A stretch of DNA of 64,000 bases from a virus (lineage: Duplodnaviria; Caudoviricetes), in IMG/VR virus record IMGVR_UViG_2933206877_000003, positions 10,092 to 74,091 of that record; one strand, 5' to 3'. The position numbers and the translations under genes are program-made. This document shows positions 13,234 to 44,495 of this stretch, in pieces. Under the pieces are notes generated by a model, which saw only the letters and a program-made list of their open reading frames with translations, did no database searches and had not been told where the DNA came from. Numbering within the stretch: the first letter of the stretch is position 1; each line of letters begins with the position of its first letter.

Positions 13234-13590
13234 CTACTTGCTGTCGGCCGGCTTGGCCGCGGCCGACTTCGACGCGGTGGTCTTGGCCGCCGTGGCCTTC
13301 TTCGCGGGGGCCGGCTTGGTGTCCGCGTTCGCGGGCCGAGGCTGGGGCTCGACGGCGGCCTCGGGGGGCCGCGCGGCCGCGGTCGTCTGCGGCGCTGACT
13401 CCTTGGCCTTCGTCTCGGGCGCCGACTTCTTCTCCGCCTCCTCGGCCTCCTCTTGCTTGTCGACGTCGTAGCCGTACTGCTCGCGCAGCACCTGGGCGAC
13501 GTACTCGGCGTCCTTCGTTCGCTTTGCGCGGCGGTAGGACTCGTATTCGTCGATCAGCGCTGTCTTGTAGCGCTCGTCGATGACCTTCAC
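13234..13590 (-). CDS. Hypothetical protein with Ala/Lys/Pro-rich tail
   Basis: GTG overlapping upstream stop; typical codon usage. Confidence 0.65.
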   Translation of the reverse strand: MKVIDERYKTALIDEYESYRRAKRTKDAEYVAQVLREQYGYDVDKQEEAEEAEKKSAPETKAKESAPQTTAAARPPEAAVEPQPRPANADTKPAPAKKATAAKTTASKSAAAKPADSK

Positions 13591-27902: not shown

Positions 27903-27907
27903 GGTGA

Positions 27908-28690: not shown

Positions 28691-29004
28691 CGTTGTCCCT
28701 TTGACGGCGGGTTGACGAGCTGGAGTGTGGCTGCGCCCGCACGGACCATCCGGAGCGCCAGGGAGCGCAGGGCGCCGAGCGGGTGGCGTGCGAACCCGGC
28801 ACAGATAGCGGGCGCCGGAGTGTCGAGGGTGGCGTGGCAGACGACGTGTCCTTCGGCGGCGATGGCGGCCTGGGTCATCTCCTGGACGCGGCCGGCCGCC
28901 AGGTGCGCCAGGTTGCCGGGCCGGTAGATGCAGGTGTCGCACAGGGTGGCGCACTGGCGCACGGTGCCGGTGTCCGGATCGGCGACGGGCGCGTCCCGGC
29001 TCAC
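28687..29004 (-). CDS. Cys-rich hypothetical protein
   Basis: CxxxCxxC...CH...CAG. Confidence 0.6.
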   Translation of the reverse strand: MSRDAPVADPDTGTVRQCATLCDTCIYRPGNLAHLAAGRVQEMTQAAIAAEGHVVCHATLDTPAPAICAGFARHPLGALRSLALRMVRAGAATLQLVNPPSKGQR

Positions 29005-29450
29005 CGGTCGCCGTCCCAGCCGGGCACGACGGTGACGGGGATGCCCTCCTCTTCCCAGAGCCGGATCACGTTGGGGTTGTCATCCCAGGCGGCGACCGGC
29101 CGGTACAGCTGGCGGATGCGGGCGAGGATGCCGCGCTTGACGACGTAGTCGGGCCTGAAGTCGCCCGGGCCGCGCATCCACATCGCCTCCGACGGCACCT
29201 GGTGCAAGGCGAGCCACCATGCGGTGACGTGCCGCCACTTCGCTGCTCGGCCGGTCACGATCAGGACCGCGCGGCCGGCGGCGTGCTCCCGGCGTGCGGC
29301 GGCGACGACGTGGTCGTGGGGCGGGCAGTCGATGGAGGCGGCGTGGAAGGTGTCGAAGCGGCCCGGACCGTCCAACAGGTGACGGATGCCGCGGACGTCG
29401 CACAGGGTGCCGTCCATGTCGAAGATGACGGCCTCGGGCAGCTCAGGCAC
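29001..29450 (-). CDS. HAD phosphatase, T4 PNK phosphatase-domain-like
   Basis: IFDMDGTL, VTGR, MR..DFRPDYVVK, WDDNP. Confidence 0.85.
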   Translation of the reverse strand: MPELPEAVIFDMDGTLCDVRGIRHLLDGPGRFDTFHAASIDCPPHDHVVAAARREHAAGRAVLIVTGRAAKWRHVTAWWLALHQVPSEAMWMRGPGDFRPDYVVKRGILARIRQLYRPVAAWDDNPNVIRLWEEEGIPVTVVPGWDGDR

Positions 29451-30339
29451 GCTTCGCCGCCTCGGTGTACAAGTGGGCGCGCACCCGGCGCAGCCACGCC
29501 TCGGCGGCTGCTTCGTCGGGCTGGTCCGGCAGGACGGACCGGTTCTCGTTGAAGGCGGCCTCGTACTCGGCGAGCAGCGGGCGCGCGGCACTGGAGTCGG
29601 CGGCCACCTGCTCCCCGAAGTCGTGGTACTCCTGCGGGTCCGTGACGCGGATCGTGAGGTGCCCGGTGGTGTACAGCTCCAGGCCCTGGTGGCACAGACG
29701 CTTCAAGTGCCGGGCGTGCTTCGCCGTCCGCTTGCGAGTGTCCGCGGAGAACGAGCCGTCGCCGCGGTTCTCCAGGCGCCGGAACTGCTGGGTGGCGTAG
29801 CCGAGGTAGGCGTCCCGGACCCGCGTCGCGGAGAGGAACGACCGGCGGATGTCGATCAGCTCGTTCCCCAGGGGCGTACGCACCTCGTACAGTTCGGGCG
29901 GCAGCCACACCAGCTCCATCACGGTCGGGTTGCCTCCGAGGGCGAGCCGGCACCACTTCGCGGCTTCATGCAGGGTGCGGTCCGGGCCCGTGGTGACGTG
30001 GGACTCGGTGGGCCGGTGAAGGCCGTGCAGCTGCTCGGTGGGTACCGCATAGATGCCGAGCCGGTCGACGTCGGAGCCGGGCCGGGCGAGGCCGTACGCG
30101 GTCGAACCGACGATGCCGGACAGCAGGACCCCCGGAACGGCGAGCCTTGAGGGCACCGGCCGCGCCAGCTTCTCCGTCGCTGCGTCCGACTGATCGGGCG
30201 AAGGGTCGACCACGTTGTGCAGCTCGGCAAGGCGGGCGTCCCACCATCGGGCCAGCGACGTCCCGAAGGGAGGCGGCCCGGCCTTCACCCACTGTTCGTA
30301 CAGGGCGGCGGCGCGGTCGGGCGGCTGGCTGGCGGTCAC
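29443..30339 (-). CDS. Nucleotidyltransferase (RlaP/YcgL-like, Pol-beta superfamily)
   Basis: GSTAYGLARPGSDVDRLGIY, GNPTVMEL, KHARHLKRL. Confidence 0.88.
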   Translation of the reverse strand: MTASQPPDRAAALYEQWVKAGPPPFGTSLARWWDARLAELHNVVDPSPDQSDAATEKLARPVPSRLAVPGVLLSGIVGSTAYGLARPGSDVDRLGIYAVPTEQLHGLHRPTESHVTTGPDRTLHEAAKWCRLALGGNPTVMELVWLPPELYEVRTPLGNELIDIRRSFLSATRVRDAYLGYATQQFRRLENRGDGSFSADTRKRTAKHARHLKRLCHQGLELYTTGHLTIRVTDPQEYHDFGEQVAADSSAARPLLAEYEAAFNENRSVLPDQPDEAAAEAWLRRVRAHLYTEAAKRA

Positions 30340-30557
30340 AGTCGGCCTCCGTTCTGGTGCTGGGTGATGTGGGCGTTGGCGGCCGCCATGCAGGCCTGCC
30401 AGCCCGCGCGGTCGAGGGTGGCCGAGCGGCCGATGAGCAGCGGCACTCCCCCGCTGCCGCAGGGCCGGCAGGCGGCGGTCCAGGCGCGGCCGGCCGGTGC
30501 GGTGCTGAACCCGACGGGCGGGAAGTCGGCGGCGCTGACACGCAGGGGGGCGTTCAC
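30336..30557 (-). CDS. Hypothetical protein
   Basis: Overlap-coupled ORF. Confidence 0.5.
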   Translation of the reverse strand: MNAPLRVSAADFPPVGFSTAPAGRAWTAACRPCGSGGVPLLIGRSATLDRAGWQACMAAANAHITQHQNGGRL

Positions 30558-30793
30558 CGCTTCGGCTCCTGGCCTGCGGTCTTCCGCGGCTGCCCGAACT
30601 GGGTGGTCAGCTGGGCGGTGATGTCGGCCTCGGTGCGTCCGCCCATGAGCAGGATCTTCATGGGCTTCAGGCCGAGTTCGGCGAGCTGCACCACGATCGG
30701 CTCGTCGGCCATGAGGCGGGCCATGTTCTCGCCGGACAGCCCGAGGACCACGACGGCCTGTCCACTGGGCTCGCGCAGGATCGCTTTGATCAT
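30554..30793 (-). CDS. Hypothetical protein
   Basis: Overlap-coupled ORF. Confidence 0.65.
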   Translation of the reverse strand: MIKAILREPSGQAVVVLGLSGENMARLMADEPIVVQLAELGLKPMKILLMGGRTEADITAQLTTQFGQPRKTAGQEPKR

Positions 30794-31494
30794 TCGCCGA
30801 TCACCTCCGCGTCGTCGGCGAGCTGGAGGCCGGCGCGCTCACAGAACTCGGTGAGGTCCATGTCGCCGCCGTACTGCTCGCCGGTGTCGAAGATGGCGAT
30901 GCGCCCCTCGGGCGGCTGCGTCCACTGCTCGCTGTCCTCGGTGTCGTACGCGTCGACGGTGCCGATGCCGGACCGGTAGCGCAGGTAGAGGTACTGGCCT
31001 TCGACGGTCCAGGCGTTCCACTGCGAAGGGACGGCTGTGCAGGTACGCACGGCCCGGGCCAGGATCAGCGGAGCGTCGGGCCGCAGCGGCAGCAGCGTGC
31101 ACGCGTGCTCGATCCCCCCGGCGCACCGTACGCCGCGGCGGGTCGCGACGTGGAGGTGCTTGCCGGCCTTCACGGCCTGGTCGACGATCGCCGCGGTGAT
31201 GGCGGCCTTACCGGTGCGGCGCGGGTGCTCGACGAGGACCTGGCGTCCGGAGCCGAGCCTGAAGACGCGGCCGAAGTCCATCAGGGCGGCAACCGCAGGG
31301 TTCCGGGCCCACGTCTCGGCGCAGTCCCGGCAGGACACCAGGCCGAGGCCGCGCGTGCACACCGGCTGTCCGCCCTCGATGGCGTGGCGGTTGACCGGAT
31401 GGGCGCAGGCAGGGCACGGCGTCGGCTCGGGTGCCCGCCCACGCCGCTCTTGGGCCAAGGCGCGTTCGCGGTTCGGGTACGGGCGGTAGTTCAC
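30790..31494 (-). CDS. Hypothetical protein
   Basis: Overlap-coupled; CTAVPSQW...YLYLRYRSG domain. Confidence 0.65.
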   Translation of the reverse strand: MNYRPYPNRERALAQERRGRAPEPTPCPACAHPVNRHAIEGGQPVCTRGLGLVSCRDCAETWARNPAVAALMDFGRVFRLGSGRQVLVEHPRRTGKAAITAAIVDQAVKAGKHLHVATRRGVRCAGGIEHACTLLPLRPDAPLILARAVRTCTAVPSQWNAWTVEGQYLYLRYRSGIGTVDAYDTEDSEQWTQPPEGRIAIFDTGEQYGGDMDLTEFCERAGLQLADDAEVIGE

Positions 31495-31829
31495 GACTCG
31501 CCTCCGACGGGCCCGTACTTGCGCTGCCAGTCGTCGTCCTTCTGGCCCAGCCCGTACTCATGCAGGGTGCGGTCGCACACGACGGCGGTGAAGGCCTTGT
31601 CCAGTTGCTCGATCGTGTGCGCCATCGTCCGGGCGATGTTGCTCGGGTCGCTGGACCATTCGGTGTGCTGCGCCAGGTAGTCCAGGCCCTTGAGGCGTCG
31701 TTGGTGGTGGTAGAGGAACGCGTCGCACTGCCGGGCCAAGACTCCGACCAGGGTGGCGAAGTGCGCCGCCGGATCGTCTTCGACGTAGGTGCGGCCGGAC
31801 GCAGGGTGGGTGAAGCTGTTGTCAGGCAC
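31491..31829 (-). CDS. Hypothetical protein
   Basis: GGGAGG RBS. Confidence 0.6.
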   Translation of the reverse strand: MPDNSFTHPASGRTYVEDDPAAHFATLVGVLARQCDAFLYHHQRRLKGLDYLAQHTEWSSDPSNIARTMAHTIEQLDKAFTAVVCDRTLHEYGLGQKDDDWQRKYGPVGGES

Positions 31830-32259
31830 CCGGTGCCTCCCAGATGACGGTGATGGGCGCGCCATGTCCCTGGGCGACTTTCACGACACCCGGATTGATC
31901 CACATGACGGTCTTCATGGGCAGGTCGAGCGCCTTCAGCTTGAAGCCGGCCTTCTCGGCGGCATCGGCCAGGACGTCGTCGGGACCGTAGTCGACCCCGA
32001 TCGAGCGCATGTAGGAGCCGAAGTCCGGTGCCTCTGAGCGCCAGCTGTACTGCGCGATGTGCTGCTCGATCTCCTCGGCCAAGGCTTCACGGAAGGCCTC
32101 GATGTCGGCCTGGCTGCGCTGCCGGCGGACGAGAGCCGAGACCGAGTTGGCCGGAGTGCTCGACTCGGCGGCGCCGCGGCCCAGGTCGTGGCCCGGCGGC
32201 TCGGCGAGCGTCTTCGCCCACCAGTTGGCGGCGGCGACGGCTTCGGGACGTGGGCTCAC
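31822..32259 (-). CDS. Hypothetical protein
   Basis: AANWWA...VDYGPD..LADAA...LPMKTVM. Confidence 0.7.
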   Translation of the reverse strand: MSPRPEAVAAANWWAKTLAEPPGHDLGRGAAESSTPANSVSALVRRQRSQADIEAFREALAEEIEQHIAQYSWRSEAPDFGSYMRSIGVDYGPDDVLADAAEKAGFKLKALDLPMKTVMWINPGVVKVAQGHGAPITVIWEAPGA

Positions 32260-32876
32260 GCGGTGCGTCCTTTCGTGGGTACGGGCTTGATCGCGTTCAG
32301 GAAGCGGATGGTGGCGTCTACGACGTTGCCCGTGAGTCGGTCCCTCTGCGGGTCACCGAATGCGAGGTACTGCATGACCGGTTCCGCGGCCTCCGGCATC
32401 GACTCGTCGATGCGGGCGCTGCTGGCCATGTACCGTCCGCCGTCGGCGTCCACCGCAGTCATGCATCGCTGCTCGACGCGGCCGGGGATCTCCTGGAAGC
32501 GGGGCACCGATCCTCCGACTGCCTTGCGGCGCAGGGCTTCCTGAACGGCCGGCTCCGTGGACCCTCCGCTGATCGCGTAGGCCTCGTACCGAAAGGCGGC
32601 GCCGATCAGCCGTCCGACGCCTGGCCTGACGAGCGGGTGTGATCCGTCCGGATGGCGGGGCAGCTGGAGCGCGACAGCGGCCAGCGCGGCAACTGTGGTC
32701 GGTGGATGCCCGGGGGTCGCCCAGACCAGCTCCGGGACCGGCAGCTGAGCGAGGCTCGCGCCGCTGGTGGTCTCATGGATGGTGAACAGCGCCGGTTGCT
32801 CGTCCCACTCGCTTCGCGTACGCAGATGGTCGACAAGCTCGGTCTGCACCGCGTTGACTGTTGCCTGACTGATCAC
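32256..32876 (-). CDS. Hypothetical protein
   Basis: Overlap-coupled ORF. Confidence 0.6.
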   Translation of the reverse strand: MISQATVNAVQTELVDHLRTRSEWDEQPALFTIHETTSGASLAQLPVPELVWATPGHPPTTVAALAAVALQLPRHPDGSHPLVRPGVGRLIGAAFRYEAYAISGGSTEPAVQEALRRKAVGGSVPRFQEIPGRVEQRCMTAVDADGGRYMASSARIDESMPEAAEPVMQYLAFGDPQRDRLTGNVVDATIRFLNAIKPVPTKGRTA

Positions 32877-33397
32877 GACGTCCTTCCTCCCCTGTTGCGC
32901 TGGTCCTCGAAGTGATCAGCGAGCGAGCGGATCGCGGCGCGCGCCACGGCGACGTTCTGCTTCGGGTCGTCCGCCGCACCGCGGACGCCGCGAAGGACGG
33001 TGAGGGCCTGGCGAAGCGGCTCGTCGAGGACGAGTACGAGCGTGTCGCGGTCGCCGTCGCCAGGCGCCGGCGGTGTCTCGTCCGAACCGTCGCTCGTCTC
33101 GCCGGTGTCGCGCGCCGTCTCCTCGGCCGCCTCGGCTTCCTCGCGCTCGGCGGCCGCGATGTCGCGTCGCACCGTGTCCTTGGAGACGCCGAGCCTGTCA
33201 CCGATCTCCCGCAGCGACAGACTCTCGCGCGACAGTCTCAGCGCCTCGATGCGCCGTCGCGCGACGTCGAGCGGCTCGGACGGCGGCGGCTTCGGCGGCT
33301 CAGCGAGGCCCGGCCGTAGCGGTATCACCGGTGTCTCATGCGACGTCTCAGCGCCGTCTCGCGACTGGCGCGCGACGCTGCCTTGGGTGGTGTTCAC
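32873..33397 (-). CDS. HTH DNA-binding protein
   Basis: LSLREIGDRLGVSKDTVRRDI. Confidence 0.8.
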   Translation of the reverse strand: MNTTQGSVARQSRDGAETSHETPVIPLRPGLAEPPKPPPSEPLDVARRRIEALRLSRESLSLREIGDRLGVSKDTVRRDIAAAEREEAEAAEETARDTGETSDGSDETPPAPGDGDRDTLVLVLDEPLRQALTVLRGVRGAADDPKQNVAVARAAIRSLADHFEDQRNRGGRTS

Positions 33398-33648
33398 CGC
33401 TCCCCCTCGCTGCCGCGTCCGGTGTACGACGTCTCGGCGCCGTCGCGCGACGGCGTCTCACTCGTGGCCGGCCGGGCCGGCGCCGTCTTGTCGGTGGGAC
33501 AGAAGTCGCCGGCGGTGTCGCATCCCCAGCCGTGCCGCATGCGGGCCATCCGGCGGGCATGCGCGGCGTTCCGGGTCCGCTCCACAGTGACCTTGGCGCG
33601 GCAGCCCCGCCGGTCGCAGAACAGGGTGTGCGCGTAGCCGATCGCCAT
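33394..33648 (-). CDS. Small Zn-finger-like protein
   Basis: CDRRGC...GW...DFCP. Confidence 0.55.
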   Translation of the reverse strand: MAIGYAHTLFCDRRGCRAKVTVERTRNAAHARRMARMRHGWGCDTAGDFCPTDKTAPARPATSETPSRDGAETSYTGRGSEGER

Positions 33649-34505
33649 CACGTGCCTGCCTCTCCGGCCGCGATCCGTTGCGCGAGCGGCCACGCCTCGG
33701 CGAGCGGGAACCGGGTGTCTGTGCGCTCGGGCTCCCGAAGGTCCTGGCGCTCGTGGACGAAGCCGTGCACGCGGTGCCAGCGGCGGCCCTCACGGTCGCA
33801 GATGGCCCACCGGTCGCCGCTGGCAGTGCTACGGCGCAGCTGGAGAGGCAGCGCCGAGCCGGTGCACGGGATCTCGAAGACGGTCACGTGCGCCAGCAGT
33901 CCGGAGAAGTCGGGAGTGGGCTCGCCCGTGTGCGACTGGGGACCGCCGCTGGTGCCCTTCTCCCGTTCCGCGTCATCGGCCATGGCCTGGACGATGTCCC
34001 GGCAGTGGCGCCATGCGTCGGCGTACGAACCAGCGTTCAGCGTGCCCTTGAGGTGGTCGGGGAGCTGCATCGCGGCGAGCCGCTCGTCGACCTGGTGCAG
34101 CGTCGTGGTGCGGGCCGCATCGCGTTCCACCTGGGCGCCGAGGATGGCGACGAGCGCGTCCTGCAGCGCGGTCTGTCCCTGGCGAGCGCGCGCGGCGTAC
34201 CGGTCGGCGGCGCCGGCGAGCGAGAGGGCGCGGGTGCGGCACAGCTTCCACGCCGTGAGGTAGCGCTCGGCGCGGGCCTCGGCGTCGAGCAGGCGGCGCA
34301 GGACGGCGGCCGCGCGCTCGCCCATGTACGCGGCGAGGTTGAGGCAGTACCAGTCCTCGCTCTGGGTGGTGTGGTCGTGCTCGCGACGGCCCTGGACGGA
34401 CTTGCCGAACGATATGAGCAGACTCGCCCGGGCAGGCTGCGTGTCGCCGAGCTGGGCAGCGAGCGTGGCCCGCTGCTCGGCCGATAGTTCGTCCCGGGCG
34501 CTCAT
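33648..34505 (-). CDS. Hypothetical protein
   Basis: Coupled 285 aa ORF. Confidence 0.65.
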   Translation of the reverse strand: MSARDELSAEQRATLAAQLGDTQPARASLLISFGKSVQGRREHDHTTQSEDWYCLNLAAYMGERAAAVLRRLLDAEARAERYLTAWKLCRTRALSLAGAADRYAARARQGQTALQDALVAILGAQVERDAARTTTLHQVDERLAAMQLPDHLKGTLNAGSYADAWRHCRDIVQAMADDAEREKGTSGGPQSHTGEPTPDFSGLLAHVTVFEIPCTGSALPLQLRRSTASGDRWAICDREGRRWHRVHGFVHERQDLREPERTDTRFPLAEAWPLAQRIAAGEAGT

Positions 34506-34873
34506 CGGTGCTCACCGCGCTCGGCGTGGTCGAGGAGGAGCTGGGCGGCCTGCTTGGCGGACATCAGCCCGTTGCGGTCCCTGAGGGCCCGCTGGATCAG
34601 GGCCGCCTCGGCGGTGAGCCCGTGCTCCTCCAGCAGCCTGACGGTGTGCTTGGCGTGCATCCCGCGTTTCTGGACAGCCGCGCGCTGGATGAGACTGACG
34701 GCGGGACTGCGGTCGACTCGGGCCTGAATCCAGGCGGCAGTGCGTGACCGGTGGAAGTCGGTGCGCTCGCGGGTGCCGCCGTGGCTCATGCACGGCTGGC
34801 CGACGGCCGCGCCGCAGCCCTCCGGCGCGGGCGGGCAGGACACGGTGCGGGGTGTGTGCTCCGGCGTCGTCAT
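34502..34873 (-). CDS. Zn-finger protein
   Basis: VSCP....C.A..GQPC....FHRSR. Confidence 0.6.
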   Translation of the reverse strand: MTTPEHTPRTVSCPPAPEGCGAAVGQPCMSHGGTRERTDFHRSRTAAWIQARVDRSPAVSLIQRAAVQKRGMHAKHTVRLLEEHGLTAEAALIQRALRDRNGLMSAKQAAQLLLDHAERGEHR

Positions 34874-35136
34874 GTGTCGTCGCCTCCCTTGCGGCGCGGC
34901 TTGTAGACGCCGGCCACCTCCTGCCAGGCCTTGTAGTCGTCGAGGGGCATGCCGCCTTCGTCGTGCGAGTTGTCGTTGAGGGCGGTGGCGGCGGCGGTGG
35001 CCAGCAGGGCGTGGCCGATGGCCTCGGTGGCCAGTGCCTGTCCGGTGACCGGGTCTGCGCCGTCGCCGTAGGTGTAGTGGTGGGCGCGCGCGAGCAGCTG
35101 CTCGGCCTCCCGGTAGTGCTCGGGTCCATGGGCCAT
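34870..35136 (-). CDS. Hypothetical protein
   Basis: GPEHYREAEQLL...HALLA pattern. Confidence 0.7.
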   Translation of the reverse strand: MAHGPEHYREAEQLLARAHHYTYGDGADPVTGQALATEAIGHALLATAAATALNDNSHDEGGMPLDDYKAWQEVAGVYKPRRKGGDDT

Positions 35137-35711
35137 CAGCCCTCGGCTCCCTTCACGGTGTCAGAGCCGAGCTGGGCGGCCCAGTCGGCGAGGATGGTGA
35201 AGTCGTGGTCGGTGAGGCCCTTGCACGGGTCGACCCAGTGCAACAAGGCGGGGCCCGGGTGGTGCTCGGCGACGTAGGCCCGGTCGATGTCGCCGTGCTG
35301 GTCGTCGACCCAGGCGAACGGCCGGCCGGCCGCGTACTCGACGATGCGGTGCGTCTTGACGTACGTCCCGTCCGCGCGGTGGGCGAACTGGCTGCCGAAC
35401 TCGATGACCGGAAAGTTCTGCGCACGCGGGAGACCGATGCGCCAGCCGATCCACTCGTTGGCGTCGTGCTCCCACGTGGTGGCCCAGACCAGCTCGAACG
35501 GCAGGCTTAGGAGTGCCGCGCCGTGGGCCGGGTTGAGCCACACGCGCAGGGGCTTCACCAGGTGCTCGGGTACGCCGTGGTGCTGGGCAACCCAGGTGTC
35601 CGGCTTCATCCGGTGCGTCCGGTAGCCGGCGGGACGCCGGTGGGGCGGTGCACCGAACGGGTTCAGCGGCCCGTCCACGTCCAGCAGGAGCAGTGGCGCC
35701 GCGCTCGTCAC
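35136..35711 (-). CDS. HAD-family protein (Swiss Army Knife RNA-repair-type HAD)
   Basis: LLLDVDGPLNP, VWATTW, FAWVDD. Confidence 0.8.
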   Translation of the reverse strand: MTSAAPLLLLDVDGPLNPFGAPPHRRPAGYRTHRMKPDTWVAQHHGVPEHLVKPLRVWLNPAHGAALLSLPFELVWATTWEHDANEWIGWRIGLPRAQNFPVIEFGSQFAHRADGTYVKTHRIVEYAAGRPFAWVDDQHGDIDRAYVAEHHPGPALLHWVDPCKGLTDHDFTILADWAAQLGSDTVKGAEG

Positions 35712-36253
35712 TGTCCGGTGTCCTCTCGCGGCGTGCACCGGGGCGCGCCCGGGCACGGGCCGAAGCCGTCGTGCTGCGAGCACTGGAACTGCGACGGGTA
35801 GGGGCCGCCGCCCTCGGCCGGGTCGATGTGCGCGGATGCGAATGCCCAGGCCTGGTCCCGCTCCTTCGTGCGGTACTCGGTCATCAGGTCCTCGGCCGCC
35901 TCATGCGCGGCCGCGCCACCGATGGCCTGCTGGTAGAGCAGCACCCTGTCCTCGGCAAGGATCCGGCGCAGGTGCTGGTCAACCTCGGCCGGTGTGGCGT
36001 CGAAGCGTCCCGGGAGGGCGACAGGCTCGGTGGGCGGCCGGGCGGTGGCGGCCCGTGCGATCCAGGACGCGATTACGGCGACCGTGGACCACTCCCAGTG
36101 GGACAGCCAGTCGATGATGACGCCGTCGTACTCCCCCAGGTCGACGCCGGCGGCGGCGAGCGTGTCCCGGAGGAGTGTCGCCTGCTCCTCCCCGTACCGG
36201 AAGCCGGCGGGCGGCTTCTCGACGGGGCCGGCCGGTATCTCTGTGGTGGTCAT
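35708..36253 (-). CDS. Hypothetical protein
   Basis: GVDLGEYD..II.WL..WE pattern. Confidence 0.65.
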   Translation of the reverse strand: MTTTEIPAGPVEKPPAGFRYGEEQATLLRDTLAAAGVDLGEYDGVIIDWLSHWEWSTVAVIASWIARAATARPPTEPVALPGRFDATPAEVDQHLRRILAEDRVLLYQQAIGGAAAHEAAEDLMTEYRTKERDQAWAFASAHIDPAEGGGPYPSQFQCSQHDGFGPCPGAPRCTPREDTGQ

Positions 36254-36466: not shown

Positions 36467-36844
36467 TCAGTCGTCGAAGCCGGGCAGCCCGCGCGTGTTG
36501 AGGCCCAGCGGGCTTGCGGCGGCGTGCGCATGGTCCAGAGCGGCGCCGAGCAGCTTTGCGGCGGCCTCGGCATTGGCCAGGGCGGTGCGCAGGTGCTCGA
36601 CCGCATGGCCCGGGGTGCCGCCCCCGTCGACGGTGACGCGGCCCTCTCCGTGCGTGCGCTGCACGGGCCGCATGGACTGCTCGATAGCCTGCGGCAGCAT
36701 CCGCACCAGGTAAGCGAGGGATCCAATCGCGTCGTACGCGTGCGGCGGGTACTGCCAGCCGTCGCCGGTGTTGATGGTGTCGTGGTTGAAGGCACGAACC
36801 AGGTCACCGGCCTTGGACATGGTGTGTCCCGGCGTAGTGCTCAT
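36467..36844 (-). CDS. Hypothetical protein
   Basis: VRAFNH.T pattern, AGGAGA RBS. Confidence 0.65.
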   Translation of the reverse strand: MSTTPGHTMSKAGDLVRAFNHDTINTGDGWQYPPHAYDAIGSLAYLVRMLPQAIEQSMRPVQRTHGEGRVTVDGGGTPGHAVEHLRTALANAEAAAKLLGAALDHAHAAASPLGLNTRGLPGFDD

Positions 36845-37473
36845 GAGGGTGTCTCTCCTGGAATCTCGAGTAGGGATTCGACGGCGCGTACGGCTTCGAG
36901 GTCGAGGACCTGGCGCAGGAGCGCCGCCTGTTCGTCGGTGAGGCGGGGCCGGGCTGCGGCGCGCACGGGGCGCTTCATCAGCACGGGCACGTCGAGGCGG
37001 ATGCCGAGCACGGCGCCGTCGGGGCCGTAGGCGATCTCGTAGCCGGACGGGGTGATGTACCAGGCTTCGTACGCCTCGGCGGGCTTTCCGGCGCGCGATG
37101 CCTGCACGGCGACCAGGGCGGCCACGGCGGCGGGCAGCGTCGTCCGGTACCGGTCCATCGAGCCGTTCAGCATCGGGCAGACGGCGACGGCGTAGTCCAG
37201 GCACTCGGGGTGCATGCCGGGCTCGTCGACGTAGCCGACGCCGGCGTCCGCCGGGCGCACGACCAGCCCGATGCGGCGGCCGAGCGGCTGGCGGCAGAAC
37301 TGGCAGGCCCGGTGCGTGATGCACTGGATTCGGCGGATCGGGAAGTTGATCCCGAAGGACGGGCGGCCGTCGAACCAACCAGTGATCCACGGGACGGCCA
37401 GGCCGCCGCGGCGCGGCAGGGCTGCGGCACGCGCGGGCGGTCGGACCGCTCGTGAGCGGCGGGGCTTCGGCAT
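36841..37473 (-). CDS. Cys/His-containing hypothetical protein
   Basis: GLAVPWI..CQFC...MHPEC.....CP. Confidence 0.7.
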   Translation of the reverse strand: MPKPRRSRAVRPPARAAALPRRGGLAVPWITGWFDGRPSFGINFPIRRIQCITHRACQFCRQPLGRRIGLVVRPADAGVGYVDEPGMHPECLDYAVAVCPMLNGSMDRYRTTLPAAVAALVAVQASRAGKPAEAYEAWYITPSGYEIAYGPDGAVLGIRLDVPVLMKRPVRAAARPRLTDEQAALLRQVLDLEAVRAVESLLEIPGETPS

Positions 37474-37568
37474 GGTGGGATCTCCAGGTGGGGCCCCGGC
37501 GGCGGGAAGCGCGCGCCAGCGCGCCGAAGCGCGGGTCGCGTGTCCGGCCGCCCGGGCGGTCTAGCCGG

Positions 37569-37997
37569 TCAGCTCTCGGCGATCTCACGGAGGCGGTGCA
37601 GCGCCGTGGAGGCGTCGGCGTAGAAGAACGTCTCGCCGGGCTTGAGACCGAGGACCTCTGCCCCAACCTGGGCGATCAGGCGGCGCTCCTCGCCCTTCTG
37701 CGCGAACGTGCGCACGGTGACCGTCTCATCGGTGCCATCGGGCTGTCGCACCAGGACTTGCGTCCTGCTGTCGTCGTCGAGGGCGACGATGGTCCAGCCC
37801 GCCGCGCGGGCAGCCCATCCGGCGGCGCACAGCGTCGTCCCACATTCGGGCTCGGCGTCCGGAGGCAGCTGTCCAGCGTCGGGGAAGTAGACCCAGTCCT
37901 CCATGTCGAAGGCGTGGGGCTGTGCTTCGATCGCGTCGAGGACTGCCGACGCGACGGCGGCGGGCGTGGCGGGGTACTTCGTGACCGTGTCGGTCAT
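37569..37997 (-). CDS. Hypothetical protein
   Basis: CGTTLCAAGWA motif, GGAG RBS. Confidence 0.7.
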   Translation of the reverse strand: MTDTVTKYPATPAAVASAVLDAIEAQPHAFDMEDWVYFPDAGQLPPDAEPECGTTLCAAGWAARAAGWTIVALDDDSRTQVLVRQPDGTDETVTVRTFAQKGEERRLIAQVGAEVLGLKPGETFFYADASTALHRLREIAES

Positions 37998-38029
37998 GGC
38001 AACTCCATTACCGTGGAGAGGCGTTGGAG

Positions 38030-38102
38030 TGGTGCTGGCGGGACTCGAACCCGCGACCCAGGACTTATAAGATCCGCGCTCTGCCAACTGAGCTACAGCA
38101 CC
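38030..38102 (-). tRNA. tRNA with UAU anticodon (nominal Ile, reads AUA); CCA not encoded
   Basis: Cloverleaf GGTGCTG-TA-GCTC-AGTTGGCA-GAGC-G-CGGAT-CTTATAA-GTCCT-GGGTC-GCGGG-TTCGAGT-CCCGC-CAGCACC-A. Confidence 0.88.
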
Positions 38103-38199
38103 GTGTTATTGAGTTGTGGGGTGGGCCGCGCCTCGCAGAGCGGGGCGGGAGCGCGGGGCGCGGCCCTGGCGGCGGTAGATCGCTACGGCCGCCGGTCTG

Positions 38200-39405
38200 T
38201 CAGGCCCGGGTGAGCAGCATCAGCCGCTTGTGGGCCTTGTTCTTCATGTCGTCGTCGGCGCCTTCGAGGGCGGCGGTGGCGCGGGCCATCTCCTCGGTCA
38301 TGGTCTTGCCGGGGCGGCGTGGGGCGACGTGGTCGAGGTAGCCGGTGATGGCCCGCTCGGCGGCGTAGGCGGTGCGGCCGACGCGCTCGGTCTCGGTGCG
38401 GAAGACGTCGTCGAGGGCGCCGAGCCGTGCGGCGTGGTTGTTCTTGGTCCTGTCGGTGGCGTCGTCGTCGAGGGGCCACAGATCGGCGATGACCTTGCGG
38501 AAGTCGGTGACGGCCATGTCCGTCCGGGCGAGCGCGGTCTCCTCGGCGGCGTACTTCTCGAAGTAGTCGAGGGACAGACCGAGGGTGCGGCGGGCTTCCT
38601 TGATCTGGTCGACGGCGCCTGCGGTGTGGCGGACGGCCCAGCGGGTGTGTGCGTCGCGTACGGCGAACCGCTCGGTGTTGGCGCAGACGGGGCGCCACGG
38701 GGTGACGACGCACTGGAAGGTGCCCTGCCCGGTGTGGTCGTTCATGACGGCCACGTACGGGACGATCGTGTCGTTGATGCCGTCCGCCTCGATCGCGACC
38801 GTTTCGGGGAGCCGGATGGAGATGAACACCCGGCGACCGCCCTTGATGACTCCGGCGGACTCCCAGACCACGTCGTAGCGTCCGACCAGTTCCTGAAGGA
38901 ACTCGAAGCCCTGCCGGTTCTGGATCGGCTCGTATCGGCGGCCGACGACGCCGAGCGCGGCGCCGCTGTCCTCCCGGACCGTGTGGAAGTGGTCGGAGTG
39001 CTCGCGGAGTTCGCCGCCCCACTGGTACAGGGCGGGGACGGTGGTGACGGTGAAGTCGAGACCGCCCGCGCGGAGCACCGTGTCGATGTCGGTGATGCCG
39101 CCGGGGATGATCTGACCGAGGCCGTGCCAGGCCGGGGACGACGCGTACAGGGCGATCGTGCCGTCCGCCCGGGAGTCGAGGCCGTGGTTCGCGAGGATCG
39201 CGTCGATGGCGCCCTGTGCGTTCCGGGAGACGGTGAACCGCTCGCCCCGGTCCCAGCCGGTGAGTACCTCGTACTGCTCGCCACCGACGAGGCGGATCTC
39301 GCCCCGGTCGATGCGGGCCTGGAACGCCTGCTCGCGGCTTCGCGCGGCGTCGATCTGGTGGGTCTTCTCGTCGGCGAACGCGGTGTTGACGTCGGTGATG
39401 GTCAC
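38200..39405 (-). CDS. DUF932-family protein
   Basis: PAWHGLG, LGVVG.RY.PIQN, ESAG...GGRRVF, RPVCANT, RHT. Confidence 0.88.
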   Translation of the reverse strand: MTITDVNTAFADEKTHQIDAARSREQAFQARIDRGEIRLVGGEQYEVLTGWDRGERFTVSRNAQGAIDAILANHGLDSRADGTIALYASSPAWHGLGQIIPGGITDIDTVLRAGGLDFTVTTVPALYQWGGELREHSDHFHTVREDSGAALGVVGRRYEPIQNRQGFEFLQELVGRYDVVWESAGVIKGGRRVFISIRLPETVAIEADGINDTIVPYVAVMNDHTGQGTFQCVVTPWRPVCANTERFAVRDAHTRWAVRHTAGAVDQIKEARRTLGLSLDYFEKYAAEETALARTDMAVTDFRKVIADLWPLDDDATDRTKNNHAARLGALDDVFRTETERVGRTAYAAERAITGYLDHVAPRRPGKTMTEEMARATAALEGADDDMKNKAHKRLMLLTRA

Positions 39406-39436
39406 GGTGACCCCTTCGGATGGTGGGTGTCTGTCG

Positions 39437-39511
39437 TGGTGGGCCCGGTCGGAGTTGAACCGACGACCGGCGGTTTTAAGGCGCCTGCTCTGACCGCTGA
39501 GCTACGGGTCC
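39437..39511 (-). tRNA. tRNA with UAA anticodon (bldA-type anticodon) on a short-variable-loop body; CCA encoded
   Basis: GGACCCG-TA-GCTC-AGCGGTCA-GAGC-A-GGCGC-CTTAAAA-CCGCC-GGTC-GTCGG-TTCAACT-CCGAC-CGGGCCC-A-CCA. Confidence 0.85.
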
Positions 39512-39560
39512 GGGTGGCGGCCGGGCCGGGGGGGGATGAGCCCGGCCGCCGGTCTGTTGC

Positions 39561-39806
39561 TCAGCCGCAGGCGGCGGAGCGGGTGAGGGATTCGCGGCGG
39601 ACGTGGTGCGGGCCGGGCCGTTCGCCCCAGGGGTCGCCGAGCGCGAAGCGGGCGTCCGGCAGGCCGAGGACGTCCATCGCGCGGCAGATCTGGCAGGGGC
39701 ACGGGATGGCGAGCCAGAGACCGTGCAGGGACCGGATGGACCCGTGGTAGATGACCAGGTCTCCCGGCTCGATCAGATCGAGTGACCGGATCAGCGTGTC
39801 CGACAT
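39561..39806 (-). CDS. Hypothetical protein
   Basis: GDLVIYHGS...CPCQIC...HVRRES. Confidence 0.65.
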   Translation of the reverse strand: MSDTLIRSLDLIEPGDLVIYHGSIRSLHGLWLAIPCPCQICRAMDVLGLPDARFALGDPWGERPGPHHVRRESLTRSAACG

Positions 39807-39831
39807 GACTCCCCCTCGGGCGATCGGTGGG

Positions 39832-40191
39832 CTACGGGTGGTTGCGGACGGGTCCGTTGCCGGGCGTCCACCGCATGGCGTCGCCGCTGACGAACGTGGC
39901 CCGGTGGGGACGCACTGTCGGTGCGGCGGGGATGTGGCGGTGTCCGGCGGTGCGGCCGTATCGGTCCCACGCGGCCCTGAGAACGTGGGTCTCTTCCGGC
40001 CGGTAGGCCATGACCTTGCGGAATCGGCCGTTGATCCACCGGAAGGCTCGGCCGGGTTCACGCCGGTAGCTCTGCCGGTAGATCTCGGCGGCGACTCGGC
40101 CGAGCGGAGAGCCATAGCGCCAGTCGGCCGGGAGACCCCGCTGAACGAGGTATTCGGCGACCGTGATTCGGCGGCTGACCAGCACAGACAT
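39832..40191 (-). CDS. Basic hypothetical protein
   Basis: GGGAGG RBS; first gene after promoter. Confidence 0.65.
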   Translation of the reverse strand: MSVLVSRRITVAEYLVQRGLPADWRYGSPLGRVAAEIYRQSYRREPGRAFRWINGRFRKVMAYRPEETHVLRAAWDRYGRTAGHRHIPAAPTVRPHRATFVSGDAMRWTPGNGPVRNHP

Positions 40192-40233
40192 GGCTTCCCT
40201 CCCCGGTTCGGAGTCCCTTGCTTCTCTTCCAGG

Positions 40234-40271
40234 ATAGGCCGAGAATGCGGCCTATGGAAGGGGTAAGTCAA
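40234..40271 (-). promoter_or_regulatory. Promoter with palindromic operator over the -10 box
   Basis: TTGACT-18nt-CATTCT; ATAGGCCG-N6-CGGCCTAT brackets the -10. Confidence 0.6.
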
Positions 40272-40305
40272 AGAAAGTACGAGACATTCCGAGAGGGTCT
40301 TTGAC

Positions 40306-40629
40306 ATGACGACACTGCACGACAGGCCGGGTATCTGGCCTACGGAACATGCGATGATCAACGCCATGGCCCGCAGCAACTACGAACCGCCCGACGATGC
40401 GGCCGAACTTTTCGCCCGGATCAAGAGGGCTCACGACACCCTCCGGGAACTGCGCGGCCCGCTCCAGGAGATGGCCGTCCGCGAGATGCGGGAGGGCGGG
40501 GCCACCGTCGGCGACCTCGCCCGTCTCACCGGCTACGACCCGGAGAAGTACCGGCTCATGGCCAGGGCCGCCGGCGTCGAGCGCCGGCGGCCGCCGACCC
40601 GGGGCCAGGTCAGCGACTCAAGCGACTGA
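40306..40629 (+). CDS. Small HTH regulator
   Basis: ATVGDLARLTGYDPEKYRLMAR; divergent from tRNA cassette. Confidence 0.7.
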   Translation: MTTLHDRPGIWPTEHAMINAMARSNYEPPDDAAELFARIKRAHDTLRELRGPLQEMAVREMREGGATVGDLARLTGYDPEKYRLMARAAGVERRRPPTRGQVSDSSD

Positions 40630-40640
40630 CCCTCCCAACA

Positions 40641-41207
40641 TCAGCCGACATGGTTCGCCGTCAGCAGGTACAGCCGGGTTCCCTCGTAGCGGGCCGGCTG
40701 CCCAGTCTCGCCGTCCTCACAGGCATCGTTGATGCACCAGGCGCGCGGCCGGTCATCGTCCGCGCGGCCATACACGGTCCGCTGCCCACACGTCAGGCAG
40801 AGGGCGTGCCGGAAGTGCACGCTGGGCCCGCGCAGGCCCAGCACGGTGAGCACCGTGCCGTGCCACCGGCTGACCAACTGCCGTACCTCCGGCTCACGAC
40901 CAGCATTCTCGGCGCCCGGCGGAATCGCGGGCAGAGCCCGGTACCAGGGCTGCGTGTGCGGCGAACCGCGCAGCTCGGCGTCCAGCTGCACAGCCTCGCT
41001 CTTAATGCGCTGCGACCACGAGACGGCCTCCAGTGACGTCGGCGGTCGGGATCCCGGTGGCGCGTGGCCACCGACGGCTGGCTGCCGGGTACGGAGGCCG
41101 AGCGTGTCCAGCCGATGGAGGAGCCCGGGGCCGTCGTCGCCGGGGTGCTGCTCGTCGCCGGTGTACCGGCTGATGAGGTCGGCGACCAAGCCGTCAAGCG
41201 TCTGCAT
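40641..41207 (-). CDS. Hypothetical protein with C-terminal Zn ribbon
   Basis: PGSRPP motif, CLTC...CINDAC. Confidence 0.65.
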   Translation of the reverse strand: MQTLDGLVADLISRYTGDEQHPGDDGPGLLHRLDTLGLRTRQPAVGGHAPPGSRPPTSLEAVSWSQRIKSEAVQLDAELRGSPHTQPWYRALPAIPPGAENAGREPEVRQLVSRWHGTVLTVLGLRGPSVHFRHALCLTCGQRTVYGRADDDRPRAWCINDACEDGETGQPARYEGTRLYLLTANHVG

Positions 41208-41967
41208 GAGCCGCCCTCGTCTTCCGTGCCCAACGTGATTTGCCGCGCTCGGACTCGCAGGCGCGGCAAACGCGTTCGCCGCGCCTGCCTGGCTTCGGGT
41301 TCGGTCGGCGGTAGGTGTTCTCCGGGGTCATCTCGTGCGGCCCCTTACCGCCCTGGCAGTGCGTCGCCAACGGCTTGGTGCGCGAGCCGACCCGGCGGTC
41401 CGTACCCTTCACCGGTGGTGCGGTCTCCGGCGCGTACCAGTGAGCGCGGAACCTGCGACGGGCGGAGGTCATGCGCTGCGTCAGCGTCGAGTACTTGATG
41501 CCGAGCGCGTCCGCGGCGGCCTGGTAGTCGCCGTGCACAGCGAGCGCGACGACGGCCTCCCGCTCGGTTTCCGTGAGCACGCCCAGGATCTGCGGTACGG
41601 CAACGCGTTCGGCGATGCCCTCCTCCGGGCGTGCGGGCGGCAGGGTCCAGTACTGCCGGAACCGCTGCGACGAGGCGACCTCGTTGGTGCCGTCCTTGTC
41701 GCGTTGCCCGAACAGGTGCCGCATCTCGCGGACCTCGGCGTAGATCGCGCGCCAGCCGACGGTGAACAGATCGTGCCACTCGGGCGGCTCGGCCGCGGAG
41801 CAGAGGGCCTCGGCGATGGCGGACCAGGCGACGTCGTAGCGGGTGGTGGCGTCGGAGGCCATCGACCGGTCGTAGGAGCAGCTGGAGGCTGCCAGTTTGT
41901 GGAGGTCGCGCAGCGAGTAGCCGTGCGCCACTGGAAGTTCTGCCGCCAGGTTGTTCAGGCTGTTCAC
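41194..41967 (-). CDS. Sigma region-4-like HTH regulator with C-terminal Zn finger
   Basis: LTETEREAV...YQAAADALGI...RMTSARRRF; C..HEMTPENTY..CRAC. Confidence 0.7.
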   Translation of the reverse strand: MNSLNNLAAELPVAHGYSLRDLHKLAASSCSYDRSMASDATTRYDVAWSAIAEALCSAAEPPEWHDLFTVGWRAIYAEVREMRHLFGQRDKDGTNEVASSQRFRQYWTLPPARPEEGIAERVAVPQILGVLTETEREAVVALAVHGDYQAAADALGIKYSTLTQRMTSARRRFRAHWYAPETAPPVKGTDRRVGSRTKPLATHCQGGKGPHEMTPENTYRRPNPKPGRRGERVCRACESERGKSRWARKTRAAHADA

Positions 41968-43744: not shown

Positions 43745-44124
43745 CAGGACTCCTCAACGGTGTAGTTGGTGGTCACGTGGACCAGGCGGAACTCGAATTC
43801 GGGGTGACGCTGCCTACGTCTGGTCAGGTCGTCGGCGGCCCGCTGCCGGTCGGAGGTGGGTCGCACGGGCAGCCAGACGTCGGCGTGGCGGTACTCGACT
43901 CGCCATGCCTCGCGCGCCGGATGTGCCTCGACGGGTACCGCCGGCCACTCCACGGTCGCGCCGTGGTAGCCCTCCAGCAGGTGTTCCAGCGACGTGGCGA
44001 CCGTGGCGAAGCCGTACTCGGGGTCATCGAGGACGAACACGCGGCCGGAGGGGAACTCTGCGCCGTCGAGGTACTGACTGTCGGACAGGTGAAGGCGGAA
44101 GCCGCGGGTGAAGACGGGTTGCAT
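43744..44124 (-). CDS. Hypothetical protein
   Basis: Coupled ORF. Confidence 0.6.
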   Translation of the reverse strand: MQPVFTRGFRLHLSDSQYLDGAEFPSGRVFVLDDPEYGFATVATSLEHLLEGYHGATVEWPAVPVEAHPAREAWRVEYRHADVWLPVRPTSDRQRAADDLTRRRQRHPEFEFRLVHVTTNYTVEES

Positions 44125-44495
44125 CAGCTTTCTCCGCTCGCACGCATCAGGCGCTCGTAGATGGAGGCGCCGCTGAGCCGGTCCTCGATGTGGCCGGACC
44201 GGCCGCGTCCGGGGTCGGTGAGGCCACTGATGGCGCGGGCCACGGCGAGAGCGGGGCACGGCAGGTTGAACAGGTTCCGCCGGCTGTCGCAGTAGCCGCA
44301 CTCGCTGTCGGGCAGGTGGATGACGGCTGCGTCCTCCAACCATCGGATCAACGGCTCACGAGCGCCCAGCAGGACCCGGATCATCTCCAGCAGTTCGCGA
44401 CTGTTGCAGTCGACGAGGAAGCCATCGCAGTTCCGATCGTCGCGGAGCCGGGCCGCGGCCGCGCGCAACTCCTCGGCTGGGTTGGTAGTGGTCAC
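44124..44495 (-). CDS. Hypothetical protein
   Basis: PAEELRAAAARLR...ALAVARAI. Confidence 0.6.
   Translation of the reverse strand: MTTTNPAEELRAAAARLRDDRNCDGFLVDCNSRELLEMIRVLLGAREPLIRWLEDAAVIHLPDSECGYCDSRRNLFNLPCPALAVARAISGLTDPGRGRSGHIEDRLSGASIYERLMRASGES

Follow-up and report, generated by a model that had tools for sequence, protein, structure and literature searches.

Why should a prophage carry tRNA genes for the two sense codons that its own genes use least? This question is raised by a locus in bases 10092-74091 of a 74,091-base IMG/VR provirus record (IMGVR_UViG_2933206877_000003), a stretch of 64,000 nucleotides (nt) with a G+C content of 69.8%, here called the window. On the minus strand, which carries nearly all genes of the window, a gene for a DUF932 protein lies between two tRNA genes, tRNA(UAA), a reader of UUA, and tRNA(UAU), a reader of AUA. 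An earlier note, made from the sequence alone, had taken this locus for a separately regulated rare-codon cassette with its own helix-turn-helix (HTH) regulator and a possible role in translational control, and its interpretation is supported in part; all the elements that it had listed were found again at the positions given: both tRNAs, the DUF932 gene, two open reading frames (ORFs), GC hairpins, promoter hexamers, a dyad and a divergent gene for a protein of 107 amino acids (aa). We propose, as a reading that we hold to have about an even chance of being correct, that readers of AUA and UUA are provided by the phage itself through processing of an early polycistronic transcript, and that their targets are messages of the host or of competitors, or that their value lies in independence from the state of the host.

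The two tRNA genes are as follows:
39437-39511, minus strand: tRNA(UAA), type I, 75 nt, called by ARAGORN (Rfam 57.9 bits over 39440-39511, against a cut-off of 29)
38029-38102, minus strand: tRNA(UAU), 74 nt, called by ARAGORN (Rfam RF00005, 68.4 bits over 38030-38102, against a cut-off of 29)

Recurrence of the tRNA pair in relatives

The comparison set for DUF932 consisted of 21 distinct related loci (51-86% identity); related loci are labelled L001 and so on, and G003 denotes the closest complete relative provirus, which has both tRNAs. All close relatives lay within Streptomyces genomes. A tRNA(UAU) was found within 1.3 kb of DUF932 in 14 of the 21 related loci. In ten loci (L001, L006, L007, L008, L009, L010, L011, L013, L015 and L025) it came directly after hairpins, and elsewhere it was found 0.9 kb downstream of DUF932 in L022, upstream of it in L002, L024 and L037, and 6.5 kb away in L023. 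No tRNA(UAU) was seen near DUF932 in L003, L005, L012, L014 (a truncated gene) or L021, and L004, which ends 26 nt past the gene, cannot be judged. Six further loci (L029, L032, L033, L034, L035 and L039) carried tRNA(UAU) without DUF932 in the flank.

An upstream tRNA(UAA) accompanied DUF932 in only three cases, the window, L001 and L011. The order tRNA(UAA)-one ORF-tRNA(UAU) was detected in these three (the L011 copy being degenerate) and in L078, L079, L080, L115, L122 and L125, where DUF932 is absent and the gap between the tRNAs is 316-370 nt. In the two gaps inspected (L079:1577-1892 and L122, reverse strand, 13296-13665), the filling was an ORF for a strongly acidic protein of 73 aa that has a GGAGGA site of its own, and the hairpin-leader design preceded each tRNA as in the window. 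The tRNA pair thus recurs in related Streptomyces prophages and in high-GC metagenome contigs, as the earlier idea of co-delivery would have it. Because the order recurs around DUF932 in three loci or around the 73-aa ORF in the two inspected, the recurring unit is, judged by gene order, the tRNA pair, and DUF932 is one of two alternative fillings. The tRNA-DUF932-tRNA synteny for which the note had suggested a search therefore holds only for the order of the pair; the cassette is not a fixed unit, and DUF932 can be replaced by the 73-aa ORF.

Coupling of DUF932 and tRNA as a property of the whole family was rejected: the two phages examined out of 521 matching records, Streptomyces phage Forrest and Nocardia phage NTR1, had no tRNA adjoining DUF932, and on this check of two distant phages the linkage appears limited to the Streptomyces prophage lineage of the window. 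A DNA search of the region against isolated phages returned only short tRNA-like or DUF932 pieces (72-81% identity). A literature search, which did not reach most subscription journals and supplements, brought to light neither an earlier account of a tRNA(UAA)/tRNA(UAU) pair in a prophage nor one of phage tRNAs that join G3·U70 to a non-Ala anticodon.

Use of TTA and ATA codons by the prophage

Codons were counted with one ORF caller based on the G+C content at third codon positions (GC3) for both complete proviruses and for a sample of Streptomyces canus:
This provirus: 3 TTA and 9 ATA among 21,191 codons
G003, with both tRNAs: 0 TTA and 8 ATA among 19,130 codons
Streptomyces canus, 200-kb sample: 2 TTA and 29 ATA among 55,379 codons

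TTA and ATA were the two rarest sense codons in both complete proviruses, and TTA was also the rarest codon of the S. canus sample. The description of both as among the rarest codons stands to this extent, but ATA was only the sixth rarest in S. canus. Other rare A/T-ending codons were 1.1- to 9-fold enriched in the proviruses compared with the S. canus sample, whereas ATA was not.

Since the phage uses TTA and ATA least, both codon compensation and a switch acting on the phage's own genes are disfavoured. The latter was the model first suggested for this locus, in which a repressor gates the cassette and translation of TTA- or ATA-containing phage genes has to await its transcription. The presence of a promoter, an operator and a regulator directly upstream would suit such a switch, as would the TTA codon in a YqaJ-like recombination nuclease gene and the earlier proposal, in the accessible part of PMC10732093, that UUA acts as a host-state sensor in a Streptomyces phage. 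However, this TTA, the only one of the provirus inside the window, is codon 268 of a 313-aa YqaJ/RecE-like nuclease call (59018-59959, minus strand), and because the position is occupied by Phe in 116 of 120 homologs and by Leu in 4, it looks like a recent change and not like a control codon. In addition, G003 lacks TTA altogether, the ATA codons are scattered over tail, glycosyltransferase and unknown genes with no pattern, and most of the relatives with the tRNAs lack the regulator. We consider the switch highly improbable, and with so few target codons in either provirus the wider suggestion of translational control has hardly any object among the phage's own genes.

tRNA(UAU) as a reader of AUA

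The tRNA(UAU) gene specifies A73 and has no encoded CCA. Its loop, CUUAUAA, contains the Ile anticodon-loop determinants A35, U36, A37 and A38, accompanied by the Ile discriminator. As to the E. coli-type Ile body determinants, which we take to be C4-G69, U12-A23 and C29-G41, the pair U12-A23 is present, and both 4:69 and 29:41 are G-C. Across 12 relatives the anticodon loop CTTATA was invariant except for one C33 in L013, and six of the seven acceptor-stem pairs were changed on both sides; the anticodon of each tRNA of the pair is conserved amid a diverging body. Five ATA codons of the prophage could be aligned with relatives, which have I, V, L or M at these positions, in keeping with normal decoding of ATA as isoleucine.

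AUA is also read by tRNA-Ile2, in which CAU is converted with lysidine, and by a rare bacterial tRNA-Ile(UAU), and the prophage tRNA agrees with Ile identity in A35, U36, A37, A38, A73 and U12-A23. It differs from tRNA-Ile2 in its genomic UAU anticodon, so that lysidine would not be needed, and in its body, for which the closest host tRNA is tRNA-Lys(UUU) (82% over positions 8-63). At L044:1501-2177 (minus strand), an 87-nt bldA-type tRNA-Leu(UAA) was observed 515 nt from a tRNA(CAU), the latter being 80% identical to the prophage tRNA(UAU) over positions 8-74.

tRNA(UAA) and its acceptor stem

The anticodon and the codon of tRNA(UAA) are those of bldA, the Streptomyces tRNA-Leu(UAA). However, bldA belongs to class II, with a length of 87 nt and a long variable arm, as seen in the bldA-type copy of a host in L044, whereas the prophage tRNA is of type I, 75 nt long, and has only 4 nt in its variable region; its acceptor stem is of the GGGCCCG type and its 3:70 pair is not Watson-Crick. 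It has A73 and an encoded CCA. Among the features of bacterial class II tRNA-Leu, the discriminator A73 is present, in 9 of 9 genome-derived members of the tRNA(UAA) family, but the long arm and the length of about 85-90 nt are absent. The host tRNAs nearest to it are tRNA-Val(UAC) (81%) and tRNA-Arg(UCU) (77-79%). By its structure, tRNA(UAA) is unlikely to be a bldA-like leucine tRNA.

We then compared the 3:70 pair in 17 family members. The pair was G·U, together with A73, in 13 of them, A·C in one (the window), G-C in two and A-U in one; the two with G-C were L011, with a degenerate anticodon arm, and L121, with G73, and the A-U of L117 is an uncertain reading. This distribution brings in a second explanation, in which the type I tRNA(UAA) is charged by alanyl-tRNA synthetase (AlaRS) and inserts alanine at UUA, mainly in TTA-containing bldA-dependent genes of the host or in competing elements, while the phage itself avoids the codon. 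According to the accessible part of PMC9976931, the bacterial Ala identity set comprises A73, G2-C71, G3·U70, G4-C69 and G20, and 3-70 mispairs can still function in E. coli. The G·U pair was also present with A73 in six of the eight high-GC metagenome matches; the search pattern had begun at position 5, leaving positions 1-4 and the 3' strand unconstrained, and hence did not select for the 3:70 pair. G·U persists while its neighbours change with compensation, 2:71 being U-A in L126 and 4:69 being U-A or U·G in L116 and L127. In L081, a UAU anticodon is carried on the tRNA(UAA) scaffold, as expected if charging ignores the anticodon. The tRNA(UAA) family conserves its acceptor stem, the opposite of the tRNA(UAU) family with its varying acceptor stem and fixed anticodon loop, and this contrast is as expected of an AlaRS-identified tRNA beside one identified by isoleucyl-tRNA synthetase. 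The presence of tRNA(UAA) in G003, which has no TTA codon, is likewise in keeping with alanine insertion elsewhere than in phage genes.

Streptomyces are, moreover, already known to encode mistranslating tRNAs: the accessible part of PMC11415595 describes the tRNAProX/ProRSx system of Streptomyces and Kitasatospora, which is likewise an actinomycete-borne tRNA with identity elements and anticodon of different amino acids. The present case differs in its alanine marks, its UAA anticodon and its prophage carrier, and no dedicated synthetase was seen in the window.

Several observations argue against alanine. The window copy retains A73 and G2-C71, but it has A3·C70 in place of G3·U70 and C4-G69 in place of G4-C69, and its D loop, AGCGGTCA, has no G at position 20. 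The leucyl-tRNA synthetase (LeuRS) of E. coli needs A73 and tertiary contacts of the D and T loops, and the long arm is dispensable for it (PMC9976931, accessible part), so that tRNA(UAA) may be charged with leucine instead. At the one assessable TTA position, the nuclease codon described above, the residues of the homologs are a better fit to Leu than to Ala. The acceptor stems are so conserved overall that shared ancestry explains part of the G·U count. Taken together, it is possible but rather doubtful that these prophages carry a family of short tRNAs that are charged by AlaRS through G3·U70 (A3·C70 in the window), that read UUA, or AUA on the one UAU scaffold, and that rewrite the rarest and developmentally gated codon of the host. 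If the alanine reading is true, the bldA regulon, or else the TTA-containing genes of rivals, would be opened or corrupted, with the phage's own genes nearly free of the codon.

The scans for tRNA(UAA) gave some further observations. The IMG/VR pattern scan matched only the contig of L001. The metagenome scan gave 13 matches, from which five low-GC contigs (L118, L119, L120, L123 and L124) were set aside; in these, the 5' half of a UAA-tRNA gives way to unrelated sequence right behind CTTAAAA, no tRNA is called by ARAGORN, and they may represent an intron-split tRNA of another lineage. On the high-GC metagenome contig L116 (571-1122, minus strand), three tRNAs lie in a row, namely, a 73-nt tRNA(UAA) with G3·U70, a 75-nt short-arm 'tRNA-Leu(UAG)' and a tRNA-Thr, and such phages may more widely carry tRNAs that combine a short arm with a leucine anticodon. 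The label 'tRNA-Phe(aaa)' given by ARAGORN to L034 and L080 was rejected as a mis-set loop, the sequence reading CTTAAAA. A 94-nt 'tRNA-Ala(cgc)' call in the window (44363-44456, plus strand) is probably a false positive; it is without Rfam support and lies inside an ORF (44124-44495, minus strand), and a similar call was made in L011.

GC hairpins upstream of the tRNAs

Each tRNA of the window is preceded by GC hairpins:
39516-39550, minus strand: GC hairpin between the ORF81 stop and tRNA(UAA) (arms 39516-39526 and 39540-39550; -29.5 kcal/mol, z -3.6)
38123-38200, minus strand: two tandem GC hairpins after the DUF932 stop, at 38168-38193 and 38123-38166 (arms of the latter 38123-38136 and 38153-38166, z -4.2)

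For the hairpins upstream of both tRNAs, none of 200 shuffles folded as well, which bears out their earlier description. The 14-mer ACAGACCGGCGGCC opens both hairpin regions (39544-39557 and 38187-38200), and these are its only two exact copies in the window. A leader, CCACAACTCAATAACAC, follows the tandem hairpins and precedes tRNA(UAU). Relatives keep two tandem GC stem-loops with C-rich loops plus the leader ACAACTCAACA before the tRNA; of 12 aligned relatives, 11 retain the hairpins after DUF932, and what is conserved is mainly the sequence, only 3 of 21 hairpin pairs being changed on both sides. A hairpin in front of tRNA(UAA) is peculiar to the window; L001 and L011 have none at this tRNA. 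Neither hairpin region is followed by a T run or listed by the terminator scan, and ORF142 starts 31 nt after tRNA(UAU), so the hairpins cannot be complete terminators.

The sequence conservation of the hairpins suggests another explanation, in which they act as recombination junctions between phage modules and the tRNAs beside them are decaying passengers. Indeed, sequence conservation is higher in the hairpins than in the stems of the tRNAs, and compensating changes in the hairpins are few; in L002, hairpins follow DUF932 with no tRNA behind them, and another hairpin-tRNA unit lies upstream. Degenerate tRNA copies also occur, in L007 (tRNA(UAU), under the Rfam cut-off), in L011 and L082, and in L013 (38.6 bits). 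However, tRNA(UAU) keeps an unchanged anticodon loop even as compensating changes accumulate in its stems, two different genes are found between the members of the pair, and among the 11 tRNA matches at or above the Rfam cut-off of 29 in L001-L015, nine score 56-66 bits. Passive hitch-hiking is, in our view, very unlikely.

Candidate promoter, operator and regulator of the leftward unit

Upstream of the leftward genes, the following elements were located:
40306-40629, plus strand: regulator candidate of 107 aa (GC3 0.87), with a long helix, a C-terminal HTH and an Arg-rich tail
40234-40255: perfect dyad ATAGGCCG-N6-CGGCCTAT, an operator candidate (single copy in the window, 0 of 100 shuffles)
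40242-40271, minus strand: leftward promoter candidate TTGACT-18-CATTCT (TTGACT 40271-40266, CATTCT 40247-40242; predicted start about 40235)

The 6-nt spacer of the dyad is exactly the -10 hexamer CATTCT; the palindrome over the -10 element that the earlier note had seen is confirmed, and it is unique in the window. The 107-aa protein had 31 homologs, all from Streptomyces and none named. Its AlphaFold model, made with an alignment of homologs, had a predicted local distance difference test (pLDDT) score of 94-96 over residues 31-90 and contained helices H30-63, H68-75 and H79-89, the HTH being formed by residues 68-89 and followed by a basic tail. No family match was obtained in Pfam, PHROG, NCBIfam or PADLOC, and the fold matches, to Fis and ArdK, were weak and not significant (best Foldseek E 0.5, for Fis). 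The model shows the HTH of the earlier prediction, and the GC3 value is of the coding type; from small HTH dimers of the Fis or ArdK kind the protein differs in having no family match and no significant fold match.

In L001 and L006, the homolog of the 107-aa protein is again back-to-back with the promoter region, and TACTTTCTTTGAC and GCAAGGG are kept flanking the dyad. The arms of the dyad are changed on both sides, from TAGGCCG/CGGCCTA in the window to TAGGACG/CGTCCTA in L006, with both-arm changes also in L001, and L006 has TTGACA-18-CATTGT at the place of the promoter. Seven further IMG/VR proviruses encode regulator homologs (43-62% identity) in the same layout, all with TAGGCC/TTGGCC half-sites around a TTGACx box; in L108, L110, L111 and L114, TTGACx is followed 17-18 nt downstream by (C/T)AnnnT (both patterns read by eye). 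The repressor-operator-promoter module is well supported by this comparison, in which regulator, dyad and TTGACx travel together, and the 107-aa protein is likely to be a repressor of the divergent leftward promoter. The layout resembles the divergent repressor-operator modules of temperate phages, in which a small HTH protein is likewise transcribed away from a promoter with a dyad over its -10 element and spacer, and in which, as in the family of the window, operator half-sites vary along with the protein. At L010:3150-3340, the place of the promoter is occupied by four copies of GGTGTAGCTAC(A/G) upstream of an ORF119 homolog, which looks like a different operator specificity at an equivalent position.

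The module does not, however, belong to the tRNAs. The regulator was found in 2 of 15 close DUF932 loci, plus one homolog at 42% identity (L010), and in 7 of 7 other proviruses it faced genes unrelated to those of the window, with no tRNA within 3 kb. Because only two or three of the 15 close loci have the regulator, and because elsewhere it faces unrelated genes, the module is, on its distribution, of a generic phage repressor-operator type and not dedicated to the tRNA cassette, contrary to the idea of a regulator of its own. Nor is separate regulation assured, as only 11 nt separate the stop codon of the 107-aa gene from the upstream gene convergent to it, and the terminator scan found no terminator there.

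Protein genes and setting of the unit

The leftward unit includes the following protein genes:
39832-40191, minus strand: ORF119, the first leftward gene, 119 aa (GC3 0.83; ribosome-binding site GGGAGGG)
39561-39806, minus strand: ORF81, a small Cys-containing protein of 81 aa (GC3 0.92)
38200-39405, minus strand: DUF932 (PF06067)/TIGR03299 protein, 401 aa, identified by profile searches
37569-37997, minus strand: ORF142, phrog_889 (function unknown), with coding-type GC3 and its own ribosome-binding site

Homologs of ORF119 were present in 6 of 15 close loci, and those of ORF81 in 7 of 15, each of the latter immediately upstream of a tRNA or of DUF932; neither protein matched a family in the Pfam, PHROG, NCBIfam and PADLOC searches. 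The 401-aa protein is a clear member of DUF932 (E 1.4e-59, 202 bits against a cut-off of 23) and of TIGR03299 (E 1.3e-101, 339.9 bits against 110.7), a 'phage/plasmid-like protein' family without known function or solved fold. In line with this, a PDB sequence search gave no matches, Foldseek gave no PDB match at E <=0.001 (best 0.028) and the best VIA Z was 5.2, with a model pLDDT of 81, and a BFVD structure search with the model returned only uncharacterised viral DUF932/DUF945 proteins. ORF142 starts so close behind tRNA(UAU) that it would be co-transcribed through the tRNA, and its homologs come after a tRNA in L001, L006, L030 and L035. Further downstream, a 210-aa protein (36841-37473, minus strand) without a family match has homologs 0.7-0.9 kb downstream of phage-type tRNAs in L032, L077 and L081 (42-50% identity), and others at 85-87% in L001 and L010; Protein Atlas gave only automatically named clusters and no Pfam family. 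Judged by these positions, its gene may travel with the tRNAs.

The wider setting in the window is as follows:
3-20 kb: large terminase, portal, major capsid, tail fibre and tape measure
21-63 kb: RecT, RecE/YqaJ-like nuclease, WhiB, glycosyltransferase and many small genes

With the structural genes at 3-20 kb and RecT, nuclease and WhiB at 21-63 kb, the cassette is part of the non-structural, early-type region of a temperate Streptomyces siphovirus-like prophage. RecT, the RecE/YqaJ-like nuclease, WhiB and a group of RNA-repair genes share one strand. The latter form an RNA-repair-type cluster at 26934-35756:
27908-28690, minus strand: Thg1-like protein
29001-29450, minus strand: PNKP-type HAD phosphatase
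29443-30339, minus strand: RlaP nucleotidyltransferase
31822-32259, minus strand: BTG-domain protein
35136-35756, minus strand: SAK-type HAD, weak and below the Pfam cut-off

This cluster, downstream of the cassette, suggests that the tRNAs might serve counter-defence, replacing host tRNAs cut by anticodon nucleases together with the RNA-repair enzymes of the prophage. Phage tRNAs plus RNA repair have been proposed as an answer to tRNA-cleaving immunity (PMC7824862, accessible part), and RlaP repairs damaged tRNA ends (bioRxiv 10.64898/2025.12.29.696909, accessible part). The record also has, upstream of the window, a Ro-like protein beside a YrlA-like RNA. However, G003, which shares 70 of 112 proteins and both tRNAs, has none of the six RNA-repair or Ro genes, and on this ground a general linkage of the tRNA pair to RNA repair was rejected. 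The loss of AUA and UUA readers would hardly harm a phage with 0-3 TTA and 8-9 ATA codons, and none of eight cassette and neighbouring proteins matched a PADLOC model. We therefore regard counter-defence as quite unlikely. As for the Ro-like protein itself, it is a 557-aa 'RNA-binding protein' (G000:C1:3276-5430, locus L026; phrog_850), Ro/TROVE-like by reading, and upstream of it there are a YrlA-like match (5328-5390, 41 bits, cut-off 69) and a 146-nt tRNA-like match (5210-5355, 46.5 bits).

A model for the tRNA pair

We propose the following course of events. The small dimeric 107-aa HTH protein would repress the leftward promoter by binding to the dyad over the -10 hexamer. The leftward transcript would carry ORF119, ORF81, tRNA(UAA), DUF932, tRNA(UAU), ORF142 and further genes, and RNase P and 3'-end processing of the host would cut both tRNAs out of this polycistronic RNA. 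The GC hairpins upstream of the tRNAs would become protected 3' ends of the upstream mRNA pieces, and they may also attenuate transcription. Selection would act on the tRNA pair and not on DUF932 or the regulator.

The phage would in this way bring its own readers of AUA and UUA into a host that has a single specialised tRNA for each codon. For AUA this host reader is tRNA-Ile2, which depends on lysidine, and for UUA it is bldA, which is limited by developmental stage. In the accessible part of PMC4932002, each of six model Streptomyces genomes has one UUA-reading tRNA, and AUA is read through lysidine. The benefit would not be relief of the phage's codon demand, but more likely an action on messages of the host or of competitors that contain these codons, or independence from host physiology.

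The following points weigh against the supply of readers by the phage. The window copy of tRNA(UAA) has two mispairs, A3·C70 and C31·C39, and could be decaying, and the copies of L011 and L082 have degenerate anticodon arms. The low TTA and ATA counts in this provirus and G003 disfavour a simple supply role, and, measured against other rare codons, ATA is depleted (odds ratio 0.3 with p 0.002 for each of the two proviruses) in comparison with the S. canus sample, which is not the prophage's own host and for which, as for the proviruses, the gene calls came from the GC3-based caller. Finally, a generic sigma-70 scan of 36500-41500, which needs at least 9 of 12 matches to TTGACA/TATAAT at a spacing of 16-18 nt, called no promoters; TTGACT-18-CATTCT scores 8 of 12. 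The hexamers and spacing of the earlier note can be read, and they are conserved with the regulator in relatives, but because the generic scan misses the site, the support for the promoter is comparative only.

Well-known carriers of phage tRNA genes are T4, T5, mycobacteriophages and large Streptomyces phages. As in such phages, the tRNA genes of this prophage lie among non-structural genes and would be cut from longer transcripts. Phage-encoded tRNAs, however, usually match codons that the phage uses more than the host, whereas here there are only two, for the two least-used codons, and one of the pair has acceptor marks that do not fit its anticodon.

In Streptomyces, development and antibiotic production are controlled by a textbook translational switch made up of the codon UUA and its single tRNA, bldA. 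A second, mobile reader of UUA would change the interpretation of bldA-dependent phenotypes in lysogens, whether leucine or alanine is inserted, and would offer a new handle for waking silent gene clusters. By the usual rule, the tRNAs of a phage match its codon needs; this pair matches avoided codons and is a clean counter-example. Should the alanine reading, which we hold only tentatively, be true, tRNA(UAA) would be the first phage-borne sense-codon recoder, as far as our literature search shows.

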